This document shows positions 1-43,935 of a DNA stretch of 64,000 bases, piece by piece. This DNA comes from an uncultured Chloroflexia bacterium (lineage in GTDB: Bacteria > Chloroflexota > Limnocylindria > Limnocylindrales > CSP1-4), in NCBI GenBank assembly GCA_963760735.1, contig CAVXEB010000004.1, positions 519,995 through 583,994 of the forward strand, read 5' to 3'. The position numbers were made by a program, and so were the translations under genes. Positions within the stretch are counted from its first letter, which is position 1. Each line of letters opens with the position of its first letter. Under the pieces are notes generated by a model. The model did no database searches, was not told the DNA's origin, and saw only the letters and a program-made list of their open reading frames with translations.

Positions 1-2495
1 AGCGCTCCGTCGCGGTTCTCGACGGCGTGGATCTCGACATCCCCGCGGGCGAGCTCGTCGTCGTCGTCGGGCCGACCGGTGCGGGGAAGTCGACGCTCCT
101 CTCGGTCCTGCTGCGCTTCCTGGAGCCGACCGCCGGGCGGGTGACGGTCGACGGCCATCCGCTCGCGGCGATCGGCCCGCAGACCTGGCGCGCGTGCCTG
201 GCGTGGGTCCCGCAGGCACCGCACCTGGTCCACGCATCGATCGCGGACAACCTCCGGCTTGCCCGGCCGGACGCGACCGCCGACGGTCACGCCATCGCCA
301 CCCGCGACGCGGGCGCCGACGGCTTCATCGCCGGTCTGCCTTCCGGCCTCGACACGATCGTGGGGCCGGGCGGCCACGGGCTCAGCGGGGGCGAGATCCG
401 GCGGCTGGCCATCGCCCGCGGGTTCCTCGCGGAGGCGCCGTTCCTGATCCTCGACGAGCCGACCGCGGACCTCGACCCGGCCAGCGCCGCCCGGATCCAC
501 GGGGCCCTCGCCGCGATGCGCGGCGAGCGGACGATCCTCGTCGCCACCCACGACCGGGGCCTGATGGACGTCGCCGATCGGATCGTGGTCCTGGACGCCG
601 GCCGCGTGGTCGCGGCCGGCCCGCCGGCTGATGTCCTCCCGGTCCTGCCGTCCGCGATCGCCACGACCCTGCCCGCCCCGCCGGATGCCGCCGGCCCGGA
701 GCGGGACGCAGGCCCGGACGACGCCTCCGGCGGCCCATCCGACAACGTTGCGGACGCCGTCGCCGCCGGGCTGGGGCGACGGCGACCGCTGCTCCGCCGG
801 CTCGTCGGGCTCCTCCGGCCTCAGGGACGATGGATCGCGATCGGCGCCGGGCTGGGTCTGCTCGTCGTCGTCGCGAACGTCGCGCTCGCGGGCATGTCGG
901 CGTACCTCATCTCCCGCGCGGCGATCGTGACGAACGTCGCCGACGTTGCGCTCGCCGTCACGGCCGTGCGGGTCCTCGCGATCTCCCGCGCCGCCTTCCG
1001 CTACCTGGAGCGGCTCGTCACCCACCGCGCCACGTTCGAGGTCCTCACGACCCTCCGGACGTGGTTCTACCGCTCGATCGAGCCGCTCGCGCCGGCCCGC
1101 CTGGCCGGGATCCGGAGCGGCGACCTCCTGGCGAGGATCGGGGCGGACGTCGACACGCTCGAGACGTTTCCGGCCCGGGTCCTCCTGCCGCCCGTCGTCG
1201 CGATCGGGGTGGTCGGGTTCGGGGCTCTCGTCCTCGCTTCATTCGCACCCGCCCTCGGAGTCGCGCTGCTCGTCGGGTCACTGATCGCGGGGGTCGGCGT
1301 CCCGATCGCGGTTCGGGGTGCCGCCCGGGGTGTTGGAGAGGCCGCGATCGTCGCCCGGGCGGAGCTGAGTGCCGCGGCCGTCGACCTCGTGACGGCGGTC
1401 GGCGACCTCGCCGTCCTCGATCGCGAGGGGCGGTACCGCGCACGGATGCTCGCAATCGGCCGGGATCTGGACCGGCTCCGGCAGCGCGGCGGGATGCTCC
1501 GGACCGCGGGCGAAAGTTCGACCGTCCTCGTGGCCGGACTGACAGGTGCAGCGGTCCTGGCGATCGGCGCCGGCCTGGTGGCAGCCGGCCGACTCGACGG
1601 GGTCGCCCTCGCCGTCGTGACGCTCGCCGCGATCGCCTGCTTCGAGGCGTTCGGGCCGGTCGCCCAGGCCGTCGAGCTCCTGCCTCGCCACGAGCGGGCG
1701 GCGGCGCGGCTGTTCGACCTCGTCGACGTCGCCCCGGCGGTCGTGGATCCTGACCGACCGGCTCCCCGGCCGATCAGCCACGACCTCGACATCCGGCGAC
1801 TGTCCTTCGCCTACGACGGCGGACCGCTCGCGCTCGATGACGTCTCGCTGTCGATCCCGGCGGGCGGCCGGCTCGCCGTCGTCGGCGCGAGCGGAGCCGG
1901 GAAGTCGACGATCGCGAACCTCCTCCTTCGGTTCTGGGACTACGATCGGGGCGAGATCCGCGTCGACGGTCGCGACCTCCACGAGTACCGGATCGACGAG
2001 GTCCGGTCGTGGTTCGGCGTCGTCGACCAGCGCGTCCACCTGTTCAACGGGACGATCCGCGACAACCTCGCGGTCGCCGACGCCGACGCGACCGACGCGG
2101 ACATGGAGCGCGCGTGCCGGATCGCCCAGCTCCACGCCTTCATCGTCGGCCTGCCGGGCGGATACGGAAGCCGGATCGGCCACGACGGCCTGCAGCTGAG
2201 CGGCGGCCAGCGCCAGCAGCTGGCGGTCGCCCGGATGGTGCTGAAGGCCGCGCCGATCGTCGTGCTCGACGAGGCCACGGCCCACCTCGACGAGGCGACC
2301 GAGGCCCGGCTCCTCGAGGCGCTCGAGCCGTTCCTGGCACGCCGGACCGTCCTCTGGATCTCGCACCGTGCCGCGATCTCGCGGTACGTCGACCAGGTGG
2401 TCCGGTTCGACCACGGGCGCGTCGTCGGCGGTCCGGTCGGGCTCGTCCGGATCCGGCCCGATGACGACGGAGGCGACGAGAGCCGGACCGGCTGA
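1..2495 (+). CDS. cydDC: Thiol-reductant ABC exporter, fused CydD/CydC-type. It has NBD - 6TM - NBD, and the upstream part of the first NBD lies outside the window.
   Basis: The frame is open from nt 3, with upstream residues RSVAVLDGVDLDIPAGELVVVVGPTGAGKS (Walker A) and LSGGEIRRLAIARG (ABC signature). A TM block follows, then a second NBD (LSIPAGGRLAVVGASGAGKST, LSGGQRQQLAVARM, VVLDEATAHLD). Confidence 0.6.
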   Translation, partial: RSVAVLDGVDLDIPAGELVVVVGPTGAGKSTLLSVLLRFLEPTAGRVTVDGHPLAAIGPQTWRACLAWVPQAPHLVHASIADNLRLARPDATADGHAIATRDAGADGFIAGLPSGLDTIVGPGGHGLSGGEIRRLAIARGFLAEAPFLILDEPTADLDPASAARIHGALAAMRGERTILVATHDRGLMDVADRIVVLDAGRVVAAGPPADVLPVLPSAIATTLPAPPDAAGPERDAGPDDASGGPSDNVADAVAAGLGRRRPLLRRLVGLLRPQGRWIAIGAGLGLLVVVANVALAGMSAYLISRAAIVTNVADVALAVTAVRVLAISRAAFRYLERLVTHRATFEVLTTLRTWFYRSIEPLAPARLAGIRSGDLLARIGADVDTLETFPARVLLPPVVAIGVVGFGALVLASFAPALGVALLVGSLIAGVGVPIAVRGAARGVGEAAIVARAELSAAAVDLVTAVGDLAVLDREGRYRARMLAIGRDLDRLRQRGGMLRTAGESSTVLVAGLTGAAVLAIGAGLVAAGRLDGVALAVVTLAAIACFEAFGPVAQAVELLPRHERAAARLFDLVDVAPAVVDPDRPAPRPISHDLDIRRLSFAYDGGPLALDDVSLSIPAGGRLAVVGASGAGKSTIANLLLRFWDYDRGEIRVDGRDLHEYRIDEVRSWFGVVDQRVHLFNGTIRDNLAVADADATDADMERACRIAQLHAFIVGLPGGYGSRIGHDGLQLSGGQRQQLAVARMVLKAAPIVVLDEATAHLDEATEARLLEALEPFLARRTVLWISHRAAISRYVDQVVRFDHGRVVGGPVGLVRIRPDDDGGDESRTG

Positions 2496-34200: not shown

Positions 34201-34680
34201 TCAGGCGCCTCCCGGCGATGCGGCCTTGATGGCGGGGTGCGTGTCGATGATCCCGGCCAACGCGAAGAACCCGACGTATGAGATGCCGTAGATGCCGACC
34301 CGTCCGTTGTGGTTCGGCACGTGCGCGAGCAGCCAGTCGATCGTGTCGCGCGTGTCGGTGCTCTCGTCGACGTCATCCGGGCCCCTGGCCGGCAAGTGTG
34401 GCCGCACGTGCGTGAACTTGCCCTCCGACATCAGCCGTCCGCGTACGTCCTGCCGCACGAAGATGTAGCGCGCCTCGAGGAGTGCCCCGGTCTGACGCCC
34501 GATCGGCACGTCCTCGTCCGGTCCGTACGGCCCAAGCCCGAACGGCGTCCGCATGAGCAGGATCGGGTACGGGCGGGCGTCGTCCTTCGGCACCAGGACG
34601 GACGTGAAGAGCCGAACGCCGTCTCGCATCGGGATCCGGTGCTCGTACTTCGTGTAGTGTCCGCGGACATCGAACGTCAT
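34201..34680 (-). pseudogene. N-terminal ~160-aa fragment of a CocE/NonD (S15 X-Pro dipeptidyl-peptidase-like) hydrolase
   Basis: MTFDVRGHYTKYEHRIPMRDGVRLFTSVLVPKD ... GIYGISYVGFF then stop; full-length members of this family are ~550 aa. Confidence 0.4.
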
Positions 34681-34810
34681 CGGTTCTCCCCAACTGATGG
34701 CGGGCCTCGCGGCGCGCCGCAAGGATAGGCGCCGCGGGGGGGTAGCTGTCGCGCAGAACGGGGATGCTCACGACAGACGCGAGCACGGCGAGGAGACAAC
34801 GAGCGTGCGC

Positions 34811-35590
34811 ATGCCGAAGCCGCTGACTGGATCAGTTCTCTCGCGGCTGGCCGCGGAGGCGCTGGCGACCTACCTCGGCCAGGCGGAGGCGTTCGAGCTC
34901 GCGATGCACCCGGGGTGTTGCCTGGTGCTCTCCGGCGAACCCGTCGCCGACTTGAACTACCTCGTGGCAGGCCGAGGCGCCGCGGATGGTGATCACTTTG
35001 CCGCAGCCTGCATGAGCGGCATCTCGCGCGGCCTCCCGTTCCTTGCCATCGTCTTTCCGGAGGCCGGTGACAGTGTCGAGCGGACCGCGGGCGACCTCGG
35101 GCTCGTCCACGTCGTGGATTTTCCGTTCATGGTGCGCGACGGCGTCGCGATCGAGCCCGAGGGAAACGACTCCGTCATCGTGCGGCGCGCGGACGGGCCT
35201 GGCGATGCGGAAGCCAACGTGACCGTGCTGAGTTCGGCATTTGCGATCCCTGAGGATCCCGTCCGGCGCGTGCTGCCGGCGTCACTGGCTGACAGCCCGA
35301 ACGTCGACATCTTCCTTGCCTCGATCGACGACGAAGTGGTCGGAACCGTCACCCTCATTCATCAGGGCGACACATCCGCTATCTGGTCGATGGCAACCGA
35401 CGCTGGTCGTCAGCGTTCCGGGATCGGCCGGCGGCTGTTGTCGACGGCGATGGCTGAGGCTCGGACCCGGGGGACAGACCGCTTCTACCTGGGTGCGACG
35501 CCGGCTGGCTATCGGCTGTACGAGAGCCTTGGCTTCACGACCCGTACCACAGCGAGGGTCTGGGCATCGGGCGAGACGCACCAGGCCTGA
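34811..35590 (+). CDS. GNAT-family N-acetyltransferase
   Basis: VVGTVTLIHQGDTSAIWSMATDAGRQRSGIGRRLLSTAMAEAR (acetyl-CoA binding motif A). Confidence 0.6.
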   Translation: MPKPLTGSVLSRLAAEALATYLGQAEAFELAMHPGCCLVLSGEPVADLNYLVAGRGAADGDHFAAACMSGISRGLPFLAIVFPEAGDSVERTAGDLGLVHVVDFPFMVRDGVAIEPEGNDSVIVRRADGPGDAEANVTVLSSAFAIPEDPVRRVLPASLADSPNVDIFLASIDDEVVGTVTLIHQGDTSAIWSMATDAGRQRSGIGRRLLSTAMAEARTRGTDRFYLGATPAGYRLYESLGFTTRTTARVWASGETHQA

Positions 35591-35714
35591 CCTGGGTGTT
35601 CGGGAGAACAGGCCCTGCGCACAGGGGGCGACCGAGGAGCGCGAAACGGAAGTTTCCGGTGACCTCCCGGAGCACCGCTCGACGATCATGTAGGTTTGGT
35701 CGGGGCGAGAGGAG

Positions 35715-36266
35715 TCAGGGCGACGATTTCGATGGCGCCTTAGCGGTGCGTGCCGACTTCCTTGCGTCACCCCTAGGGAGCCCGCGCTTGGCCAGGGCGG
35801 CGGCGAAGCCCTCGATGTCCTCGACTGTCAGATAGAGGGCCGGGACTCGGACGCCCAGCTGAGAGACTGGTTCCCTGAAGTCGATCCGAACGCCTCCCCG
35901 ATTCGTGCCGCCGAATGAGGTCGTGGTCGCGGACGCTAAAGCGGACGCCGATCGCGGTGATCCATCGCCAGGGGCCCATCGATGCGCCAAGAGGCGAGGT
36001 TGCTCGTCGGTGTTGCGGACCATCCGGCTCCCGATAACACTCGACGATGCGGTCGCGGCAGTCGTCGGGCTCCTCGGCTCCGGAGAGAGGCCCGTCCGCT
36101 GAATCGCGGACGGTCCAGCTCGAACTGCCCAGTAACCTGTCGGCCCATTCGTTCGGCACCTAACGGCTAACGCGCTCGGCGCGCACACCCTGCATGACCG
36201 CGCTGCGAGCGGTGGGACGAGGCGACCGCCGATGTAGCCGCTGGTGCCGACGACGAGGATCCGCAT
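35715..36266 (-). pseudogene. Gene remnants: N-terminal 25 codons of an NAD(P)-binding epimerase-like protein joined to non-coding-like sequence and a glyoxalase-like C-terminal fragment
   Basis: MRILVVGTSGYIGGRLVPPLAA then Arg/Ser junk; ...GVRIDFREPVSQLGVRVPALYLTVEDIEGFAAALAKRG. Confidence 0.25.
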
Positions 36267-36284
36267 GACGTCCCTTGTCGAGAC

Positions 36285-37154
36285 CTACGCCAGGAACCGG
36301 TCGATCACGGCCGCGGTCTCATCCGGCTGCTCCAGCTGGGGGAGATCCCCGGCGTGCTCGATCGTGATCCGTTCGAGGGTGCCGTTCGCAGCGACGAGCG
36401 CTTCCGCGGCCGCGGGGTCGGTGAAGCGCGGATGATCCCCGAAGACGAGAAGCGTCCGGTTCGAGAGGCGCCGGTAGGCGCCCTCCGCTCGAGGATCGTT
36501 GAGTAGCCCGGCGACGAACGCCAGCGGAGCCCGGTAGGCACCTGGCTGCTGGCAGCTTCGCCAGCAGTACCGCTCGTACTCCGTTGGGACTTGCTCCGGA
36601 TCCGCGAAGGTCTGCCGAAGGAACCAGCGGATCACCTGGCGCCGAGCGAGGACCGCGAAGAGCAGCCGCCCGATCCCCGTCAGGCGAAGGAACCGGTGGA
36701 TGTTCCGGGAGGTTCGCCCAGCGCTGCCCTTGAAGCGGCCGAATCCGGTCGGACTGATCAGGACGATGCCGCCGAACCGCTCCGGATGCTCCGCGGCGGC
36801 GACGACGACATACTGCCCCGGCAACGAGAGCGCGACGACCTCGATCGAGGCCTCGCCCGGCTGCAGGGCGGCAAGCCGGATGCGCTCGAGCTGCTCGCCG
36901 AAGAGAGCCCAGCCGTACGGCGCGTCGGGCCGATCCGATGTGCCGAATCCGAGCCAGTCGACGAGCACGACCCGCCGGTGTTCGGCCAGCCGCGACGCCA
37001 GCGGCGCGAGCTCGATGCCCGAACCGGCCGCGTTGAAACTATGCAGGAGCAAGACCGTCCGACCCTCGCCCAGCTGGTAGGCGCTGACCCGGCCGGCAGC
37101 GGTCTGGACGTCAAACGGGACACCCGCGACGGGAGCGGGCAGGGACTGCGTCAT
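36285..37154 (-). CDS. Alpha/beta-hydrolase fold protein; last gene of the HeR operon
   Basis: TVLLLHSF ... VVLVDWLGFGTSDRP ... IVLISPTGFG; ATGA overlap with the upstream regulator. Confidence 0.6.
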   Translation of the reverse strand: MTQSLPAPVAGVPFDVQTAAGRVSAYQLGEGRTVLLLHSFNAAGSGIELAPLASRLAEHRRVVLVDWLGFGTSDRPDAPYGWALFGEQLERIRLAALQPGEASIEVVALSLPGQYVVVAAAEHPERFGGIVLISPTGFGRFKGSAGRTSRNIHRFLRLTGIGRLLFAVLARRQVIRWFLRQTFADPEQVPTEYERYCWRSCQQPGAYRAPLAFVAGLLNDPRAEGAYRRLSNRTLLVFGDHPRFTDPAAAEALVAANGTLERITIEHAGDLPQLEQPDETAAVIDRFLA

Positions 37155-37999
37155 GCCCGTGCCCTGAGCGCTTCGATCAGGTCGCCGAGCCCTCGCGGAT
37201 CCGCGACCCACCCGTCCGCACCGAGATCGAGCGCCACGCGTTCGTCCGGAACCGCGTTTCCGCCGACCAGGCGCGGAACCGACGGTCGTTCCCGACGCGC
37301 GGCGGCCAGGAGGCGTCCGGCTGCCGGACGCCTCTCGATGTCGACGACACTCACGACGACCGCCGCGAGAGATCCCGCATCGCGCATGGCAGCGACAAGG
37401 GACGCCGTCGGCGTGTCGGGGCCCAGGTTGAGGACCTCGTATCCGGTGTCGGTAAGGATGTCGGCGAGCATCGCGACCCCGAGTCCGTGACGCTCACCGG
37501 GCGGCATCGCCACGATGACGACGCCCTTCTTGCGGCCCGCGTGCACGAACCGGGGGCCCAGCCGTCCGATCAGCGTCGCCGCCACACTGCTCGCGAGATG
37601 CTCCTGGTCGACGGAGACGCGACCCGATTTCCACGACGCCCCGATGGAGTGCAGCGACGGCGCAAGGATGCGGACATGGATCTCGCCTGGCTCGAATCCC
37701 GAGGCCATGGCAGCCTCGATGACCTGCCAGCTACCCGCGACGTCACCACCGAGCATCCGCGCCTGAAGTCGTTCCTGCCAGATCGATACTCGCGGATGGC
37801 TGCCCCCGCGACGGCGGCGACCACGGTCCGGCGTTGTTGTCGCCTGCTCGAGATCGGCAGGATCGACCAACCACGTGCCGCCGATCTTGCGGGCCGGCAG
37901 GATCCCCAGCCGGACGCGACGGTAGACCGTCATGTAGTGGACGCCGAGGCGATCGGCCGCTTCGTGCAGGCTCAGATGGTGGGACGGGTCCGGCGGCAT
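37151..37999 (-). CDS. CarH/LitR-like photoregulator: MerR-type HTH + cobalamin (B12)-binding domain
   Basis: LSLHEAADRLGVHYMTVYRRVRLGILPARKIGGTWLV (MerR HTH); GKKGVVIVAMPPGERHGLGVAMLADILTDTGYEVLNLG with the E-x-H-x-x-G B12 lower-ligand motif; its start overlaps the HeR stop. Confidence 0.6.
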   Translation of the reverse strand: MPPDPSHHLSLHEAADRLGVHYMTVYRRVRLGILPARKIGGTWLVDPADLEQATTTPDRGRRRRGGSHPRVSIWQERLQARMLGGDVAGSWQVIEAAMASGFEPGEIHVRILAPSLHSIGASWKSGRVSVDQEHLASSVAATLIGRLGPRFVHAGRKKGVVIVAMPPGERHGLGVAMLADILTDTGYEVLNLGPDTPTASLVAAMRDAGSLAAVVVSVVDIERRPAAGRLLAAARRERPSVPRLVGGNAVPDERVALDLGADGWVADPRGLGDLIEALRARA

Positions 38000-38805
38000 C
38001 AGCCCGCCAGGGTTCCTGCGAACACCTGCCAGGCGAGCGCCGACTTCGCGACCAGGCTGAGCATGAAATAGGCCCTCTCGCCGAAGACGTACGCCTTCCA
38101 GGGACCGATCCGCCGGTACTGGAGCCACATGTTAAGCGCGAAGATGTTGAAGAAGACGAAGAGCGAGACGAAGATCGCGTAGACGAAGGCGGGCGGCTCG
38201 GCAGTGCTACCGGGCGACCAAAGGTAGACGCCGACGGCCAGCCACGGCGCGATGCCCACGACGCACCCGAGCCAGAACGGCCACAGTGAGCCTCCCGGTC
38301 GCTCGTATCGTTCCTGGACCGCTCCGAAGAAGATCATGGCCGCGTTGGCCGCGAAGATGCCGATCAGCGCCGCGACATCGCTGATCCCGGTGAGCATCGC
38401 GATGAGCACGATCATCACCGACGATGAGAGCGAGTACTCGGCCCAGCGAAAGTAGTTGTGCTGCGCAGTCAGGCCGGAGGTGTAGCGCCCGAAGACGCCG
38501 GGCAGCACCACGAGCCAGTGGAAGACGGCCGACAGCAGCAGGAACAGGGCGACGCCCCACGCCACGGAGACTTCGAACAGGGTGGTCGGCGCGCCGGCCG
38601 CAGTGCCCGGCGGCCCCTCCATGAACGTCGCCGTGACCGGCAGCGCGAAGGCCGTGGCGAGTGCGAGGACGGCGACGGCCTGGGCGGCATGGATGAGGCC
38701 GAGTCCGAGGTTCCAGCGCCGCAGGGAGGCAGCCCGCGAAGCCGGGAGCTCCACCATCGGGGTGGAGATGAGCTGGTTGCTGGCGATCACGATGTTGTCC
38801 TTCAC
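37999..38805 (-). CDS. Heliorhodopsin (inverted-topology retinal protein)
   Basis: FRWAEYSLSSSVMIVLIAM (counter-ion Glu helix) and GERAYFMLSLVAKSALAWQVFAGTL (Schiff-base Lys). Both align almost residue-for-residue with heliorhodopsin 48C12 as I recall it. Confidence 0.8.
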   Translation of the reverse strand: MKDNIVIASNQLISTPMVELPASRAASLRRWNLGLGLIHAAQAVAVLALATAFALPVTATFMEGPPGTAAGAPTTLFEVSVAWGVALFLLLSAVFHWLVVLPGVFGRYTSGLTAQHNYFRWAEYSLSSSVMIVLIAMLTGISDVAALIGIFAANAAMIFFGAVQERYERPGGSLWPFWLGCVVGIAPWLAVGVYLWSPGSTAEPPAFVYAIFVSLFVFFNIFALNMWLQYRRIGPWKAYVFGERAYFMLSLVAKSALAWQVFAGTLAG

Positions 38806-38813
38806 GGGACGAG

Positions 38814-38846
38814 GGTGGGGCCTGGAGGAGAGACAGGCCCCACCCT
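38814..38846. terminator. 10-bp perfect inverted repeat (gggtggggcc ... ggccccaccc). It could be a fasciclin-gene terminator or an operator at the HeR promoter.
   Basis: Located in the 65-bp gap between the fasciclin stop and the HeR start. Confidence 0.3.
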
Positions 38847-38870
38847 CGGGTGGAATGGGTCGCGGGAGGG

Positions 38871-39452
38871 TCAGTTCGAGGGCGGCAGGATGACCTTGTC
38901 GATGACGTGGATGACGCCATTCGACGCCATCAAATCGGGCGTCACGACCTTGGCGCTGTCGTTCAGATAGACGGTTCCGTCCTTGACGGAGATGGCGACG
39001 GGCGATCCTTCGACCGACGTGGCTGACGTGAGTCCGACGACCTTGTCAGCGGTGACTGAACCCGAAACGACGTGGTACAGCAGGACCTTCTTGAGCGCGG
39101 CTGGATCCTTGAGGAGGCCGTCGAGCGTGCCGGCCGGCAGTGCGGCAAAGGCCGCATCGGTCGGTGCGAACACGGTGAAGGGACCCTTGCCCTGGAGCGT
39201 CTCCACGAGGCCGGCAGCCTGGACCGCCGTCAGCAGGGTCTTGAACGAGCCAGCCTCGGTGGCGGTCTCGACGATGTCCTTGGCCATGGCAGCAGCCGAA
39301 GCCGAAGGCGCGATGCTCGGCGATGTGGCAGCGGTGGATGCCGGGGTCGCCGTGGGAGCGGTGGTGGGCGCCGCGCTCGGTGAGGCCGCGCTGGAGCAGG
39401 CCGCGATCGCGATGGCGAGCGCTGGCACGAGGAGGGCGATGGATTGTTTCAT
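38871..39452 (-). CDS. Fasciclin (FAS1) domain lipoprotein
   Basis: [21 protein letters not shown] lipobox; [14 protein letters not shown] ... [13 protein letters not shown]. Confidence 0.7.
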
Positions 39453-39500
39453 GACTAATGACTTCCCTTCAGGCTTCGGACTGGATGTTGTCGGGTCGGG

Positions 39501-40024
39501 TTGACTCGACATGCCGAATTATTTAGCACTAAATCCAGATTGTCAAGCACGGATCTGAGGGAGTGCCTGCTGGACGAAGGCATGACCTACGACAAGATCG
39601 TCGCCGCAACCGGCATCTGCGAGAACAAGTCCAGCCTGGCCGCGATCCTCGCCAACCCGATCTATCGCGGCGTTCGCGTCTTCAACCGTGCTCACGCAGC
39701 GCCGGCCCGAGAGCTTCCGAGCGGATCAACGTCGAGATCGAGGCGGTTGCGGCCGAGCTTGAAGCGGCCCAGGCGAGAATCGCCGAGCTGGACCAGGCGG
39801 AGCGGCCACTCCGGATCACAACGAAGCTCGTTCGGCCGACGATCGACGACATGAACGGGATCCTCGACCACGCGCCGTTGGCGACGCGGGTGGAGTGGGT
39901 CCGAGACCTGTTCGAGCGGATCGACGTCGACAGTCGCGACGAGAAGGCTGTCGCCGTCTGGAGGGCCGCGACCGACGAGGGTGTTAACCGGTCGGATTCC
40001 GTATACGAGTGGATCCGGCGGTAG
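39501..40024 (+). pseudogene. Large serine recombinase C-terminal fragment, frameshifted (~39700). It abuts tRNA-like fragment B.
   Basis: Frame 3: LAAILANPIYRGVRVFNR; frame 2: INVEIEAVAAELEAAQARIAELDQAERPLRITTKLV ... VEWVRDLFERIDVDSRDEKAVAVW. Confidence 0.4.
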
Positions 40025-40055
40025 GACTCGAACCTACGACCAAGCGCTCCGGCCA
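40011..40055 (-). other. tRNA 3'-half-like fragment, copy B (candidate att core)
   Basis: rc = ggtc-GTAGG-TTCGAGT-CCTAC-cgccgga-t-CCA. It is a direct repeat of 8393-8437 with compensatory T-stem changes. No 5' half could be folded from the downstream sequence. Confidence 0.4.
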
Positions 40056-40336
40056 GAGCGACGTGCTCCCGTGCGTGGAGCACCAACCGTAGGGGCCTCC
40101 GTTAGTTGCACAGTTTCCGCGACGGCCCTCGGCCTGGCCCACGATGTCCCACGGACGCTCTGCCGCCACTCGAGCTGCTGCCCAAGCGTCGACGTCGCGC
40201 CCGGACTGCCCAGCGTGCGCCAGACACGCATGACTGGCGAACAAGGCCGTTACCTGACCACGAGAGCCGGTGCGCGGAAGGTGGCCTTGGCGTTGGCCGC
40301 CGGTGGCGTATCGACCTCGTTGTTAATCTTCGGGCC

Positions 40337-40726
40337 ATGGCGGAACCCAAGAAGCACACGAGCGCGGCTGACCTGCTCGCGGACTGGCGGTCGGCCGGGC
40401 GGGACGCCGCAGCCGCTCATGCCGCAGAGAAGGTTGCCGAGATGGCGCTCGTTGCGGCCGCCCACGCCGAGGAGGCGGCCGACGAGGTCGCGATTGCCGC
40501 GGCCGCGGCGTTGGAAGCGGTCGATCGAGCACAGATCGCCGCGAATCGGGCACGAGCTGCCGCTCTCCAGGCAGGTGAGGCGGCCCACCTCGCGCTCACC
40601 ACTGCCGAGGGCGACCGGGTACGCGCCAGCGAAGGTGTGCAAGACGCGGAAGCGGCAGAGGCAGCAGCGCAGGAGCGATACCGCGGTGCGTCCGAGAAGG
40701 GATTCCCTCGCGGCCGCACAGGCTAG
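40337..40726 (+). CDS. Ala-rich hypothetical protein (129 aa)
   Basis: ATG at ~40337; MAEPKKHTSAADLLADWRSAGRDAAAAHAAEKVAEMALVAAAHAEEAADE... Confidence 0.35.
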   Translation: MAEPKKHTSAADLLADWRSAGRDAAAAHAAEKVAEMALVAAAHAEEAADEVAIAAAAALEAVDRAQIAANRARAAALQAGEAAHLALTTAEGDRVRASEGVQDAEAAEAAAQERYRGASEKGFPRGRTG

Positions 40727-41689: not shown

Positions 41690-42262
41690 GTGACGAACGT
41701 ACAGAGTCAACTCGAGGCTGGGGACCAACCGCCTGCCCTCGAACGGCCAAGGAGTTCCCGGGCCGACGAGGCCACCCTCACCGCGCTCTACGAGGAGCAC
41801 AGCAGCGAGATCCTTGGGTTCCTCGTTCGGATGACTCGGGATCGCGGCGCGGCCGAGGACGTGCTCCAGGAGACCTTCGTCAGCCTGATCTCCGAGTCCC
41901 GTGCCGGCAAGATGCCCGACCTCGTCAGGCCTTGGCTGTATCGAACCGCTACGAACGCGGTGATCAGTCGCTCGCGCCGTCGGTTGGCACTTGCGCGTCT
42001 CCTGCCACGCCTCCTCGACCGCCGCGAGCCGGAACAGCCGGAGGCCGAATCACTCCGGCTTGAACGCGAGTCCGACCTCCATGCTGCGCTGGCGCGGCTC
42101 GTTCCCGATGCACGTGCAGCCCTCCTGCTTGCCGCCCAGGGGTTCGCCGGCGCCGACATCGCACTTGCGATCGGACGGTCCGAGGGCGCCACCCGGACCC
42201 TGATGTGCCGAGCGCGCGAGGATCTCCGCCACGAGCTCGAAGCCGCGGAGGATCCGCGATGA
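41690..42262 (+). CDS. ECF-subfamily sigma-70 factor
   Basis: Region 2 (LQETFVSLI ... PWLYRTATNAVISRSRRR) and region 4 (LPDARAALLLAAQGFAGADIALAIGRSEGATRTLMCRAREDLR). Confidence 0.8.
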   Translation: MTNVQSQLEAGDQPPALERPRSSRADEATLTALYEEHSSEILGFLVRMTRDRGAAEDVLQETFVSLISESRAGKMPDLVRPWLYRTATNAVISRSRRRLALARLLPRLLDRREPEQPEAESLRLERESDLHAALARLVPDARAALLLAAQGFAGADIALAIGRSEGATRTLMCRAREDLRHELEAAEDPR

Positions 42263-43935
42263 CTCTTTCCCAGCGCTCGGTCCATGACCGCGCCCTTGAG
42301 CGTGCTGCGCGTGCCATCGACGGTCCGCTCTCCCCCGCCGAGGCAGCCGACCTCGAGGGCCACATCGCAAGCTGCCTCGCTTGTGCCCGCAGGGCGTCTG
42401 CCTTCCGGGCAGACGCGGCGGCCCTTTCGCTGCCCCTTGATCTCGAGCCCGGCCACCGCGTCGACCAAACGATCCGCGCGGCGATCATGCGGCCCGACAC
42501 CGGGCTCGGCGGCCGCCCCGGACGCTCCCTGCTGCTGGTGGTGGCGGCAGCCCTCATCGTCGTCGCGCTCGTGAGCGCAATGGCCGTTGGCGGCTTCTTC
42601 CTGCGCTCATTGCAGAGACCGCCGATCTCGGTCGATCCGAACCCGCCGCCGGTCGCCGTGGTGAGCCCCGCGCCGACCACCCCACCGATCGAGGTTGGCG
42701 AGACGTGGGACGCGATGGACTTCCAGGTTGGTTCGGACGGACTGCTCGAGGCCATCACGTTCGACGGGACGAGCCTCGTCGGTGTCGGTCGCGGGAGCTG
42801 CGTGGTCGACTCCAACGCCTCGGGCTCGTGCCATGGCGCTGCCTGGACGGCGGGACCGGGGGAGCCATTGGCCGGCGCACCCGAGCAACCCGGGCTCGAG
42901 ATGGGGACCGGGACGGCGCCGAGTGGTCCTGAGAAGGGGATCTTCGATGTCGTCGCCGGACCGGCGGGTCTGGTCGCCGTCGGGTACGACTACAACCCTC
43001 CGCGCTCCTCGTGCACGATCGCACCGTGCACGTCCGGGCCTGCTGTCTGGCGTTCGGCGGACGGCCAGACGTGGGAGCGGATCCCGATCGATCTCGGGCC
43101 GGGCGTCATCGATCGGTTCTCCGATCCGATCGCGGCGATTGCCGCTGGGCCGCACGGCTACATCATGGTTGGGTTCGCGTCGGATCAGGGGGTACCGGGT
43201 CCGGATGTTCGAGCCCGAGCCACCGCATGGACGTCTCCGGACGGCACGACCTGGACCCGAGCAATCGACTCTGCCGAGATGGACGTCGGGCCGTGCGTGG
43301 ACACCCGCGAGACGCGAAGCTGCGGTGGCATGCGCGCCGTCGCCGTCACGCCGAGCGGGTTCGTCGCGGTCGGTGAGGTGCGAACGAGCTCGGCGCCGGA
43401 CCAGCCACCCCAGCCGGCGGCATGGACCTCGCTCGACGGCCTGAGGTGGACGAGGGTGTCCGACGGGCTCGGCTTCGGTGCTGAGACCGTCAACGTCGGC
43501 GGCTCCCTGTCGGGCGTGACGGCAGGCGGGCCGGGCCTCGTAGCGGTCGGCAGTGCCTGCAGGCCGGATTGCGGTTCGGCCTACGCCAACGGATTGGTCG
43601 CCACATCGGTCGACGGGTCGACATGGAGCCTCACCATTCTGGACGCCGCGAGCGAGCTGATCGACGTCACCACGAGTGGCCGATCATTGTTCGCCCCGGG
43701 CGTGCGACAGTCTGCGAGCGGGCCTGCGGAGCTCCAGCTCTGGCGATCCGATGACAGCGGCGTCACCTGGCAGCGGGTGACCGGCCTCCCAACAACCCCC
43801 GATGCCCTCGGCTACAGGGCCGTCGATATCGCCGCAACTGCGAATCGGGTGGTCATCGCTGGCTGGGCAGAGGTCACGGGCGGCGACACCTTCCGGAACT
43901 TCGGCTTCTCCAGCCCGGCGGCTCGATCGACATAA
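42259..43935 (+). CDS. Anti-sigma factor (zinc-finger type) with one TM and a large extracytoplasmic BNR/Asp-box beta-propeller domain
   Basis: HIASCLACARRASAF (ZAS-like); TM LLLVVAAALIVVALVSAMAV; five S-x-D-G-x-T-W repeats (WRSADGQTWERI, WTSPDGTTWTRA, WTSLDGLRWTRV, ATSVDGSTWSL, WRSDDSGVTWQRV); start overlaps the sigma stop. Confidence 0.6.
   Translation: MTLSQRSVHDRALERAARAIDGPLSPAEAADLEGHIASCLACARRASAFRADAAALSLPLDLEPGHRVDQTIRAAIMRPDTGLGGRPGRSLLLVVAAALIVVALVSAMAVGGFFLRSLQRPPISVDPNPPPVAVVSPAPTTPPIEVGETWDAMDFQVGSDGLLEAITFDGTSLVGVGRGSCVVDSNASGSCHGAAWTAGPGEPLAGAPEQPGLEMGTGTAPSGPEKGIFDVVAGPAGLVAVGYDYNPPRSSCTIAPCTSGPAVWRSADGQTWERIPIDLGPGVIDRFSDPIAAIAAGPHGYIMVGFASDQGVPGPDVRARATAWTSPDGTTWTRAIDSAEMDVGPCVDTRETRSCGGMRAVAVTPSGFVAVGEVRTSSAPDQPPQPAAWTSLDGLRWTRVSDGLGFGAETVNVGGSLSGVTAGGPGLVAVGSACRPDCGSAYANGLVATSVDGSTWSLTILDAASELIDVTTSGRSLFAPGVRQSASGPAELQLWRSDDSGVTWQRVTGLPTTPDALGYRAVDIAATANRVVIAGWAEVTGGDTFRNFGFSSPAARST

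Follow-up and report, generated by a model that had tools for sequence, protein, structure and literature searches.

Organization of the heliorhodopsin locus

We analyzed a 64,000-nucleotide (nt) stretch of DNA from an uncultured Chloroflexia bacterium (CSP1-4), a soil member of the Chloroflexota (GenBank assembly GCA_963760735.1, contig CAVXEB010000004.1, positions 519,995–583,994 of the forward strand). The whole stretch is called the window below, and its G+C content is approximately 70%. The subject is a minus-strand gene cluster that encodes a heliorhodopsin (HeR) and a B12 photoreceptor-type transcription regulator. The cluster reads, in the direction of transcription, as a fasciclin (FAS1) lipoprotein gene (38871–39452), the HeR gene (37999–38790), the regulator gene (37151–37999), and a gene for an α/β-fold hydrolase (36285–37154). 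The open reading frames (ORFs) of the last three are arranged head-to-tail, and stop and start codons overlap at both junctions. The TGA of HeR (38001–37999) shares a nucleotide with the ATG of the regulator (37999–37997) in the sequence TGATG, and the TGA of the regulator (37153–37151) overlaps the ATG of the hydrolase (37154–37152) in the sequence ATGA.

A preliminary description of this DNA had pointed out three overlapping minus-strand genes with a fasciclin lipoprotein gene upstream of HeR. The coordinates of the two overlaps bear out the former, and a match of the upstream gene to the fasciclin profile PF02469 (E = 3e-41; 140.8 bits against a cutoff of 22) bears out the latter. The domain assignments made there for HeR, the B12-binding regulator, and the α/β-hydrolase were reproduced by Pfam profile searches. 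The transcription unit is larger than had been thought, being a four-gene operon that starts from a promoter at 39546–39518, upstream of the fasciclin gene.

Heliorhodopsin

The HeR protein matches the Pfam profile Heliorhodopsin (PF18761) with an E value of 1.2e-96 and 323 bits (cutoff, 26.7) and the NCBIfam profile NF038020 with 307.6 bits (cutoff, 100). It aligns over its whole length with HeR 48C12 (PDB 6su3; E = 2.9e-81), the founding heliorhodopsin. The preliminary description had made its assignment depend on alignment with heliorhodopsins over transmembrane helices (TM) 3 and 7. The Schiff-base Lys in TM7 (SLVAKSALAW) and the counter-ion Glu in TM3 (FRWAEYS) both align with the same residues of 48C12, and the segments glIHaaq and savfHwlv (the TM1/TM2 His residues), frwaEys, and slvaKsalawq all pair with identical residues. 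The protein itself shows no notable difference from 48C12 and the other solved HeRs. The new element is its genomic setting under a predicted B12- and light-responsive operator.

The HeR gene most likely starts at GTG 38790, giving a predicted protein of 263 residues, because the ribosome-binding site GAAGGA (38803–38798) is conserved in relatives with a start codon 7–10 nt after it, whereas the upstream GTG 38805 is not. The codon equivalent to the latter is often ACG or AAC in relatives, and this start was rejected. The called HeR genes of two relatives (L001 and L002) also encode 263 residues.

The B12-binding regulator

In the 282-residue regulator, Pfam profiles identify HTH_17, B12-binding_2 (PF02607; 37.8 bits against a cutoff of 23), and B12-binding (PF02310; 46 bits against a cutoff of 32). 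The protein is built of a winged helix-turn-helix (HTH) domain, an Arg-rich linker, a four-helix bundle with a Wx9EH motif, and a Rossmann B12 domain. The AlphaFold model (AF2) has the same parts, with the linker disordered. A Foldseek search with the model returned B12 photoreceptors, and full-length CarH was aligned over approximately 290 columns. The best PDB sequence matches of the B12 module are likewise all B12 photoreceptors (E values of approximately 1e-15 to 1e-16), namely Thermus thermophilus CarH/LitR, the photocobilins (8j2w being the closest), and the B12 domain of a Chloracidobacterium MerR-family protein.

The Wx9EH motif, which caps the adenosyl group in CarH, consists of Trp123, Glu133, and His134 and is aligned to WHRGEIGVAEEH of T. 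thermophilus CarH. The lower-ligand motif set reads E169xH171xxG174-x42-S217xV219-x26-G246G247, residue positions having been counted by hand from the alignment. Trp123, Glu133/His134, and His171 pair with Trp131, Glu141/His142, and His177 of T. thermophilus CarH. Glu133, His134, Glu169, His171, Gly174, Ser217, Val219, and Gly246 are invariant in 17 homologues, and Trp123 and Gly247 are nearly so. The E-x-H-x-x-G lower-ligand motif of the preliminary description is thus confirmed by three of the invariant residues (Glu169, His171, and Gly174). B12 binding had been said there to hinge on a His ligand in the alignment, and His171 matches the lower-ligand His of CarH. The pattern D/ExHxxG...SxT/V...GG is the lower-ligand motif of the CarH B12-binding domain, and together with Wx9EH it separates light-sensing CarH from B12-independent CarA (PMC9304148).

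The DNA-binding domain is best described by HTH_17 (1.3e-9) and by the NCBIfam profile TIGR01764 ("excisionase"), which scores above its cutoff, while no MerR profile of Pfam or NCBIfam matched the regulator at E ≤ 0.01. The recognition helix reads HYMTVYRRV, and the RxWERRY motif is lacking. A MerR-family DNA-binding domain was therefore rejected. The earlier classification of the protein as a MerR-HTH plus cobalamin regulator of the CarH/LitR type holds for the B12 module but not for the HTH, which is of the HTH_17/excisionase type. Judging from these profiles and motifs, the regulator probably acts like CarH without being a CarH equivalog. Nor does it represent a novel photoreceptor type.

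Conservation of the gene module

A protein search with the regulator gave 580 homologues, the best 120 of which are all at least 70% identical; in some gene calls, the regulator is joined to HeR or to the hydrolase as a single gene. When one genome per GTDB species was scanned, regulator relatives were found in 309 genomes. The neighbor tallies below refer to the best 80 loci, in which six-frame ORFs were searched with the window proteins. These loci are from Chloroflexota metagenome-assembled genomes (MAGs) labeled Chloroflexia, Limnocylindrales, or Thermomicrobiales (55–94% identity) and from Acidimicrobiia MAGs (44–59%).

An intact HeR gene directly adjoins the regulator on its upstream side in 49 of the 80 loci. 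The preliminary description had called for a survey of HeR neighborhoods; in this survey, anchored on the regulator, the synteny is conserved. Only a deletion remnant of HeR is found at this position in eight loci, fasciclin directly precedes the regulator without HeR in five, neither HeR nor fasciclin is found in 13–14, and contig ends cut the region in approximately four. In most loci with HeR, whichever the phylum, fasciclin comes first and has the same orientation. The HeR stop codon overlaps the regulator start codon in 37 of 57 loci, and elsewhere the two genes are separated by spacers of 13–64 nt, with larger insertions in two loci. HeR immediately precedes the regulator in each of three long contigs, whose flanks are otherwise unrelated; only one of the three also has the hydrolase.

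The remnants are true internal deletions without Ns, and the 3′ end of HeR next to the regulator start is always kept, which is attributable to translational coupling of the regulator to HeR. Since the eight loci with HeR deletions and the five with fasciclin directly before the regulator keep the regulator, HeR is dispensable to it. The losses occur in the related Chloroflexota MAGs L005, L007, L013, L015, L016, and L024 (also in L030 and L057), as seen, for example, at L016:2995–3230; there the last 50–70 codons of HeR are retained, and fasciclin, the regulator, and the hydrolase are intact.

Some relatives also encode, at a distance of a few kb from the module, small stand-alone B12-binding proteins of approximately 150 residues that lack a DNA-binding domain (L002:11432–11884, minus strand; L011:8015–8422, minus strand; L017:10994–11431, plus strand; L029:7001–7441, minus strand). 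A search of the window for such a small B12 protein, a regulator paralogue, a photolyase, or an Acidimicrobiia-type extracytoplasmic function (ECF) sigma factor yielded only genes that were already known.

Promoter and candidate operator

The operon promoter on the minus strand consists of a −35 hexamer TTGACA (39541–39546) and a −10 hexamer AATAAT (39518–39523) separated by 17 nt. It agrees with the consensus at 11 of 12 positions and is the sole match in a scan of 35500–40500. The −10 hexamer is AATACT in most relatives according to the cross-locus consensus. Within this promoter lies a 14-bp palindrome (39521–39534; ATTTAGTGCTAAAT) made of the half-sites ATTTAG and CTAAAT around a central TG. 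It fills 11 of the 17 spacer positions and covers three nucleotides of the −10 hexamer.

The palindrome is unique in the window when up to two mismatches are allowed (0.03 occurrences expected). The exact sequence is found in 48 of 83 related loci, in one copy and never more, while the chance expectation for all loci together is approximately 6e-4 by our estimate from base composition. With at most one mismatch, it occupies the equivalent place in approximately 66 loci, at a conserved offset from the −35 hexamer, with the consensus cTTGACA-N6-ATTTAGTGCTAAATAcT. In nearly all loci covering the region, a palindrome with at most one mismatch (two in some distant loci) precedes the first gene of the module or the regulator gene. 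It stands directly before HeR where fasciclin is missing (L003, L020, L021, L025, L027, and L037) and before fasciclin and the regulator in loci without HeR. Its position therefore tracks whichever module gene comes first and no one particular gene, and across approximately 130 loci it co-varies with the regulator gene. A gene-blind scan of Joint Genome Institute (JGI) metagenomes with TTGACA-N6-ATTTAGTGCTAAAT gave 54 contigs. Fasciclin is the first gene downstream in all 49 of those with at least 200 bp of downstream sequence, followed by HeR and the regulator if the length allows.

In distant Acidimicrobiia, the palindrome with one or two mismatches is located 30–90 bp upstream of the regulator gene. 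The same loci have tandem palindromes approximately 33 bp apart before a cluster of genes for an ECF sigma factor, a zf-HC2/RskA anti-sigma factor, an acyltransferase, and DNA photolyase (L068:7399–7444, L070:7026–7072, L071:2873–2920, and L072:6894–6941). The pairing of the copies hints that the regulator may bind as a dimer of dimers. In the LitR-LitS circuit of Streptomyces coelicolor, the B12-type regulator is located beside an ECF sigma factor. The Acidimicrobiia arrangement, in which regulator relatives stand beside ECF sigma/anti-sigma genes with tandem palindromes, followed by photolyase, resembles that circuit, whereas in the window, as in its close relatives, the operator occurs nowhere but at the fasciclin-HeR operon.

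These comparisons strongly suggest that the palindrome is the operator of the regulator, which would thereby control its own operon. Since its spacer is of optimal length and its hexamers nearly match the consensus, the promoter is predicted to require no activator, and these features and the overlap of the site with the −10 hexamer point to repression rather than MerR-style activation.

An ECF sigma factor gene (41690–42262) and a gene for a zf-HC2 putative anti-sigma factor are also present in the window, the pair lying at 41690–43935 on the plus strand, approximately 2 kb upstream of the operon promoter. The window search found no palindrome near this sigma factor gene and no sign that the pair belongs to the regulon. 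In Acidimicrobiia modules, an AT-rich element resembling TTTAGTGATAATAT is located in the spacer between HeR and the regulator, just before the regulator start (L050:3971–4058, L051:2223–2293, L052:5928–6000, and L054). It may serve as an additional promoter and operator close to the regulator.

Fasciclin gene and intercistronic hairpin

The fasciclin gene starts at ATG 39452 (MKQSIALL...), and the ribosome-binding site GAAGGGAAG and the ATG (MKQS/MKR) are conserved in relatives. An upstream ATG at 39512 was rejected as the start, because it lies 5 nt past the −10 hexamer, about at the transcription start predicted near 39511. A signal peptide with a lipobox AIAAC and its Cys was read from the sequence and judged by eye.

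The fasciclin and HeR genes are separated by an inverted repeat on the minus strand (38811–38847) with a GC-rich 14-bp stem (38847–38834 paired with 38824–38811) and a 9-nt loop. The 90-nt intergenic sequence containing it (38786–38875) has a minimum free energy of −41 kcal/mol (z = −5.1 against shuffled sequences). Hairpins of 12–18 bp are found at every fasciclin-HeR junction among the loci; the stem sequence differs each time, and an alifold alignment of 22 loci shows compensatory changes in 12 of 13 hairpin pairs. The hairpin stays behind the fasciclin gene where HeR is absent. Since the stem sequence varies while pairing is kept, this element is an RNA structure and not a protein-binding DNA site.

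The preliminary description had seen here a 10-bp perfect repeat (38814–38846) that could be a CarH-type operator or a terminator. The repeat exists, though its stem is 14 bp long. As an operator it was rejected, given the compensatory drift of its stem and its persistence with fasciclin when HeR is gone. The terminator option was right as to a strong hairpin, but no run of T follows the stem, and the promoter/terminator scan did not call an intrinsic terminator. We infer that the hairpin acts at the 3′ end of the fasciclin cistron as a stabilizer or partial terminator and thereby adjusts the expression ratio. In Chloroflexota, only approximately 10–30 nt separate the hairpin from the ribosome-binding site of HeR, leaving no room for a promoter.

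Proposed regulation and alternative explanations

The reading that we favor, and consider more likely than not, is that the locus is a CarH-like, adenosylcobalamin (AdoCbl)-dependent, light-derepressed, and autoregulated operon with HeR as its cargo. The operon would be read from the promoter at 39546–39518 through the fasciclin lipoprotein gene, the RNA hairpin, HeR, and the B12 regulator to the α/β-hydrolase. In the dark, the regulator would bind AdoCbl, oligomerize, and occupy ATTTAGTGCTAAAT in the spacer and at the edge of the −10 hexamer. RNA polymerase would then be blocked at a strong sigma-70 promoter, so that the whole operon, including the gene of the regulator itself, would be off. 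Light would break the Co–C bond, the repressor would leave the DNA, and fasciclin, HeR, new repressor, and the hydrolase would be made. The hairpin behind fasciclin probably stabilizes or partly terminates the transcript, and fasciclin would be produced in excess over the downstream proteins. The overlap of stop and start codons would couple translation of the regulator to that of HeR. HeR would be a light-induced cargo gene and not a partner chromophore of the regulator. Of the options that the preliminary description had raised, light gating of the operon by a CarH-type regulator is favored by the conserved palindromic candidate operator within the operon promoter.

Several points weigh against this mechanism. 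We infer the binding of the regulator to the palindrome, repression, control by AdoCbl and light, and the role of the hairpin from what is observed, that is, gene order, domains, motifs, promoter, palindrome, and co-conservation with the regulator. The regulator scores only 81.3 bits against the NCBIfam CarH equivalog NF052513, whose cutoff is 400, and that profile covers residues 55–269 only. The AF2 model is only moderate (predicted local distance difference test, 77; predicted template modeling score, 0.51). In many, though not all, CarH proteins, the His after the motif Trp forms a bis-His adduct after photolysis. In the regulator, Lys124 aligns with this upper-ligand His of T. thermophilus CarH, and the position varies (Lys, Arg, Gln, or Glu) among the homologues; the light-state chemistry may therefore differ from that of CarH. 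The DNA-binding domain of CarH is MerR-type, whereas that of the regulator is HTH_17/excisionase by profile. The characterized CarH proteins are repressors with operators composed of tandem 11-bp direct repeats, nnnnTnnACAn (PMC9304148), whereas the candidate operator in the window is a 14-bp palindrome. A lone palindrome of this length is small for a tetramer, and the Chloroflexota promoter showed no further site. Finally, transcription could stop completely at the hairpin, in which case HeR and the regulator would be expressed from an unseen internal promoter.

The preliminary description had proposed a two-chromophore sensing module, in which illuminated HeR would bind or modulate the regulator and tune or extend its spectral response. 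The close linkage of the two genes agrees with such a sensor, as seen in the intact HeR that borders the regulator gene on its upstream side in 49 of 80 species genomes of two phyla, the overlap of their codons in 37 of 57 loci, and the deletions that always spare the HeR 3′ end; HeRs have also been reported to regulate soluble enzymes such as photolyase (PMC9769723). However, the regulator itself possesses the full set of photoreceptor motifs, 13 loci in which HeR is deleted or absent retain both the regulator and its operator, and in relatives these two serve ECF-sigma/photolyase clusters without HeR. The kept 3′ end is accounted for by translational coupling, and B12-binding neighbors occur near only approximately 1–5% of HeRs and equally near proton pumps (bioRxiv 10.1101/2021.02.16.431466). 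Joint sensing was thus not borne out, and we consider it less likely than regulation and improbable in itself. The palindrome would also suit a regulator that switches the promoter on in the MerR style, in light or dark, since a site between the −35 and −10 hexamers is the classic MerR position and the DNA-binding domain is predicted to be a MerR-like winged HTH by fold. MerR-activated promoters, however, have over-long spacers of 19–20 bp, whereas the spacer here has the optimal length of 17 bp between near-consensus hexamers, and the site overlaps the −10 hexamer. The characterized CarH proteins, moreover, are repressors (PMC9304148), and we consider activation improbable here.

The B12-binding fold is common to corrinoid proteins and methionine synthase, and the regulator might report cobalamin availability, the link to HeR being incidental to a B12-dependent envelope function. 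Against this, the Wx9EH cap, which is a photoreceptor signature, is intact, the cargo in relatives is light-related (HeR and DNA photolyase), and an Rfam scan of the window found no cobalamin riboswitch or any other RNA family; we regard such a role as very improbable. The hairpin, strong and conserved as it is, could act as a full, U-less terminator of fasciclin, HeR, the regulator, and the hydrolase then being transcribed from an internal promoter independent of the palindrome. The AT-rich element before the regulator start in Acidimicrobiia, a possible second promoter, is in keeping with such separate transcription. Yet the short distance between the hairpin and the HeR ribosome-binding site contains no promoter-like site in the scan, and the palindrome promoter stands directly before HeR where fasciclin is missing. 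Separate transcription is accordingly quite improbable.

A further reading concerns the two cargo proteins. The surface fasciclin lipoprotein and HeR could be the conserved functional pair, co-expressed only in light, with FAS1 as the extracellular partner of HeR, perhaps in the capture or delivery of retinal or carotenoid or in coupling HeR to the envelope. Retinal and light are all that HeRs and proton pumps have in common, and fasciclin is enriched near either of them; blh is rare beside HeRs (Chazan et al., bioRxiv 10.1101/2021.02.16.431466), and FAS1 domains can bind carotenoids, as in algal AstaP (PMC10147662). These facts support the pairing. Carotenoid binding by FAS1 is, however, known only for algal AstaP, where it has been described as a neofunctionalization; a cyanobacterial FAS1 homologue bound no carotenoids, and fasciclin persists where HeR is lost. 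We consider the pairing unlikely, with a small chance of being right. If true, FAS1 would be the first conserved operon-encoded partner of HeR, and the B12-gated on-switch would offer an experimental handle.

Relation to known systems and significance

The CarH/LitR proteins of Thermus thermophilus, Bacillus megaterium, and Myxococcus xanthus have the same three-part build as the regulator, and their operators lie over core promoter elements, as does the candidate operator in the window. In the carB operon of M. xanthus, the regulator genes carA-carH are located at the 3′ end of the operon that they control, an arrangement also found here. The cargo of CarH/LitR is carotenoid genes, whereas that in the window is fasciclin and HeR, with the hydrolase added. 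The photocobilins (PMC10979010), which come closest to the B12 module among PDB entries, show by precedent that such a photoreceptor can be combined with a second chromophore. They hold B12 and biliverdin in one polypeptide, whereas the second chromophore in the window would be in a separate membrane protein, and the evidence here points to regulation rather than joint sensing.

To our knowledge, the function of heliorhodopsin has been open since 2018. In our literature searches, no paper treated heliorhodopsin together with "B12-binding" or "fasciclin," and no heliorhodopsin gene with a known regulator came to light. Bulzu et al. (PMC8612252) make no mention of B12, MerR, LitR, or CarH. In the census of Chazan et al. 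(bioRxiv 10.1101/2021.02.16.431466), cobalamin-binding proteins figure among the light-using families near HeRs, and the authors stress that these families are also found near proton pumps. In their Dataset S3, windows around group-A HeRs of Chloroflexi contain B12-binding_2 in 3, HTH_17 in 3, and DUF2867 in 5 of 57 cases, and those of Actinobacteria contain B12-binding in 18, Fasciclin in 11, and HTH_17 in 9 of 876 cases. That census counted Pfam families and did not single out the cobalamin-binding, HTH_17, or Fasciclin families; the architecture of the regulator, the photoreceptor motifs, the promoter and operator, the gene order, and the hairpin were not identified there. The claim in the preliminary description that such a module had not been described therefore stands insofar as it had not been dissected, but cobalamin-binding neighbors of HeRs had already been listed. 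The association of B12-binding proteins with HeR was statistically visible before and involves a minority of HeRs overall; both facts fit the cargo model.

Three predictions follow from the model. A widespread group of soil Chloroflexota and Acidimicrobiia should produce HeR only when illuminated, with a B12 photoreceptor in control; a secreted fasciclin lipoprotein should be expressed along with it; and control should be exerted through the 14-bp operator and the promoter defined here. The locus makes the vague picture of HeR as probably sensory directly testable. The CarH/LitR paradigm would be extended by an excisionase-type HTH, a palindrome instead of direct repeats, and a non-carotenoid cargo, features that could serve B12-based optogenetic switches. 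The finding should interest specialists in rhodopsins and B12 photobiology, though it is less exceptional than the preliminary description proposed.

Hydrolase and neighboring sequences

The 289-residue hydrolase is a clade-specific fourth cistron. It matches the Pfam profiles Abhydrolase_6 and Abhydrolase_1 above their cutoffs. NCBIfam matches, to PcaD, HsaD, and BchO-like models, are weak and below threshold, so no equivalog was reached. The motif ALSLPG, which resembles a nucleophile elbow, is invariant and may hold the nucleophile. The gene is intact downstream of the regulator in only 20 of the 80 loci and fragmentary in five, all in the closest Chloroflexota clade, and it was therefore rejected as a core component of the module.

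ARAGORN called an unusually long, 92-nt tRNA-Arg (CCT) at 1644–1735 (plus strand) inside overlapping long ORFs, and Rfam at its gathering threshold found no tRNA there. By eye, a lookalike of a tRNA 3′ half (GTAGGTTCGAGTCCTAC-CGCCGGA-T-CCA) is found at 40010–40037 (minus strand), where ARAGORN and Rfam called nothing. Beside it, frameshifted ORFs at 39501–40024 (plus strand) look recombinase-like by eye, with no Pfam match. Together they may be what an integrated element left behind next to the operon promoter.

Downstream of the operon, only residues 1–23 of the epimerase of a relative (L002) match the window in tblastn, at 36198–36266 (minus strand), and mark the remnant of an NmrA/epimerase gene that comes after the hydrolase in relatives. 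A 183-residue ORF at 35715–36266 was rejected as a real gene, since its agreement with the epimerase of relatives ends after the first 23 codons. The full NmrA/epimerase gene with DUF2867 lies beside the module in L002 (9731–11182) and L071 (1213–2682). The match of another ORF (34201–34722, minus strand) to the Peptidase_S15 profile is confined to the first half (positions 1–125 of 262). The epimerase remnant and this half-length match suggest that genes downstream of the operon have decayed or been rearranged locally.

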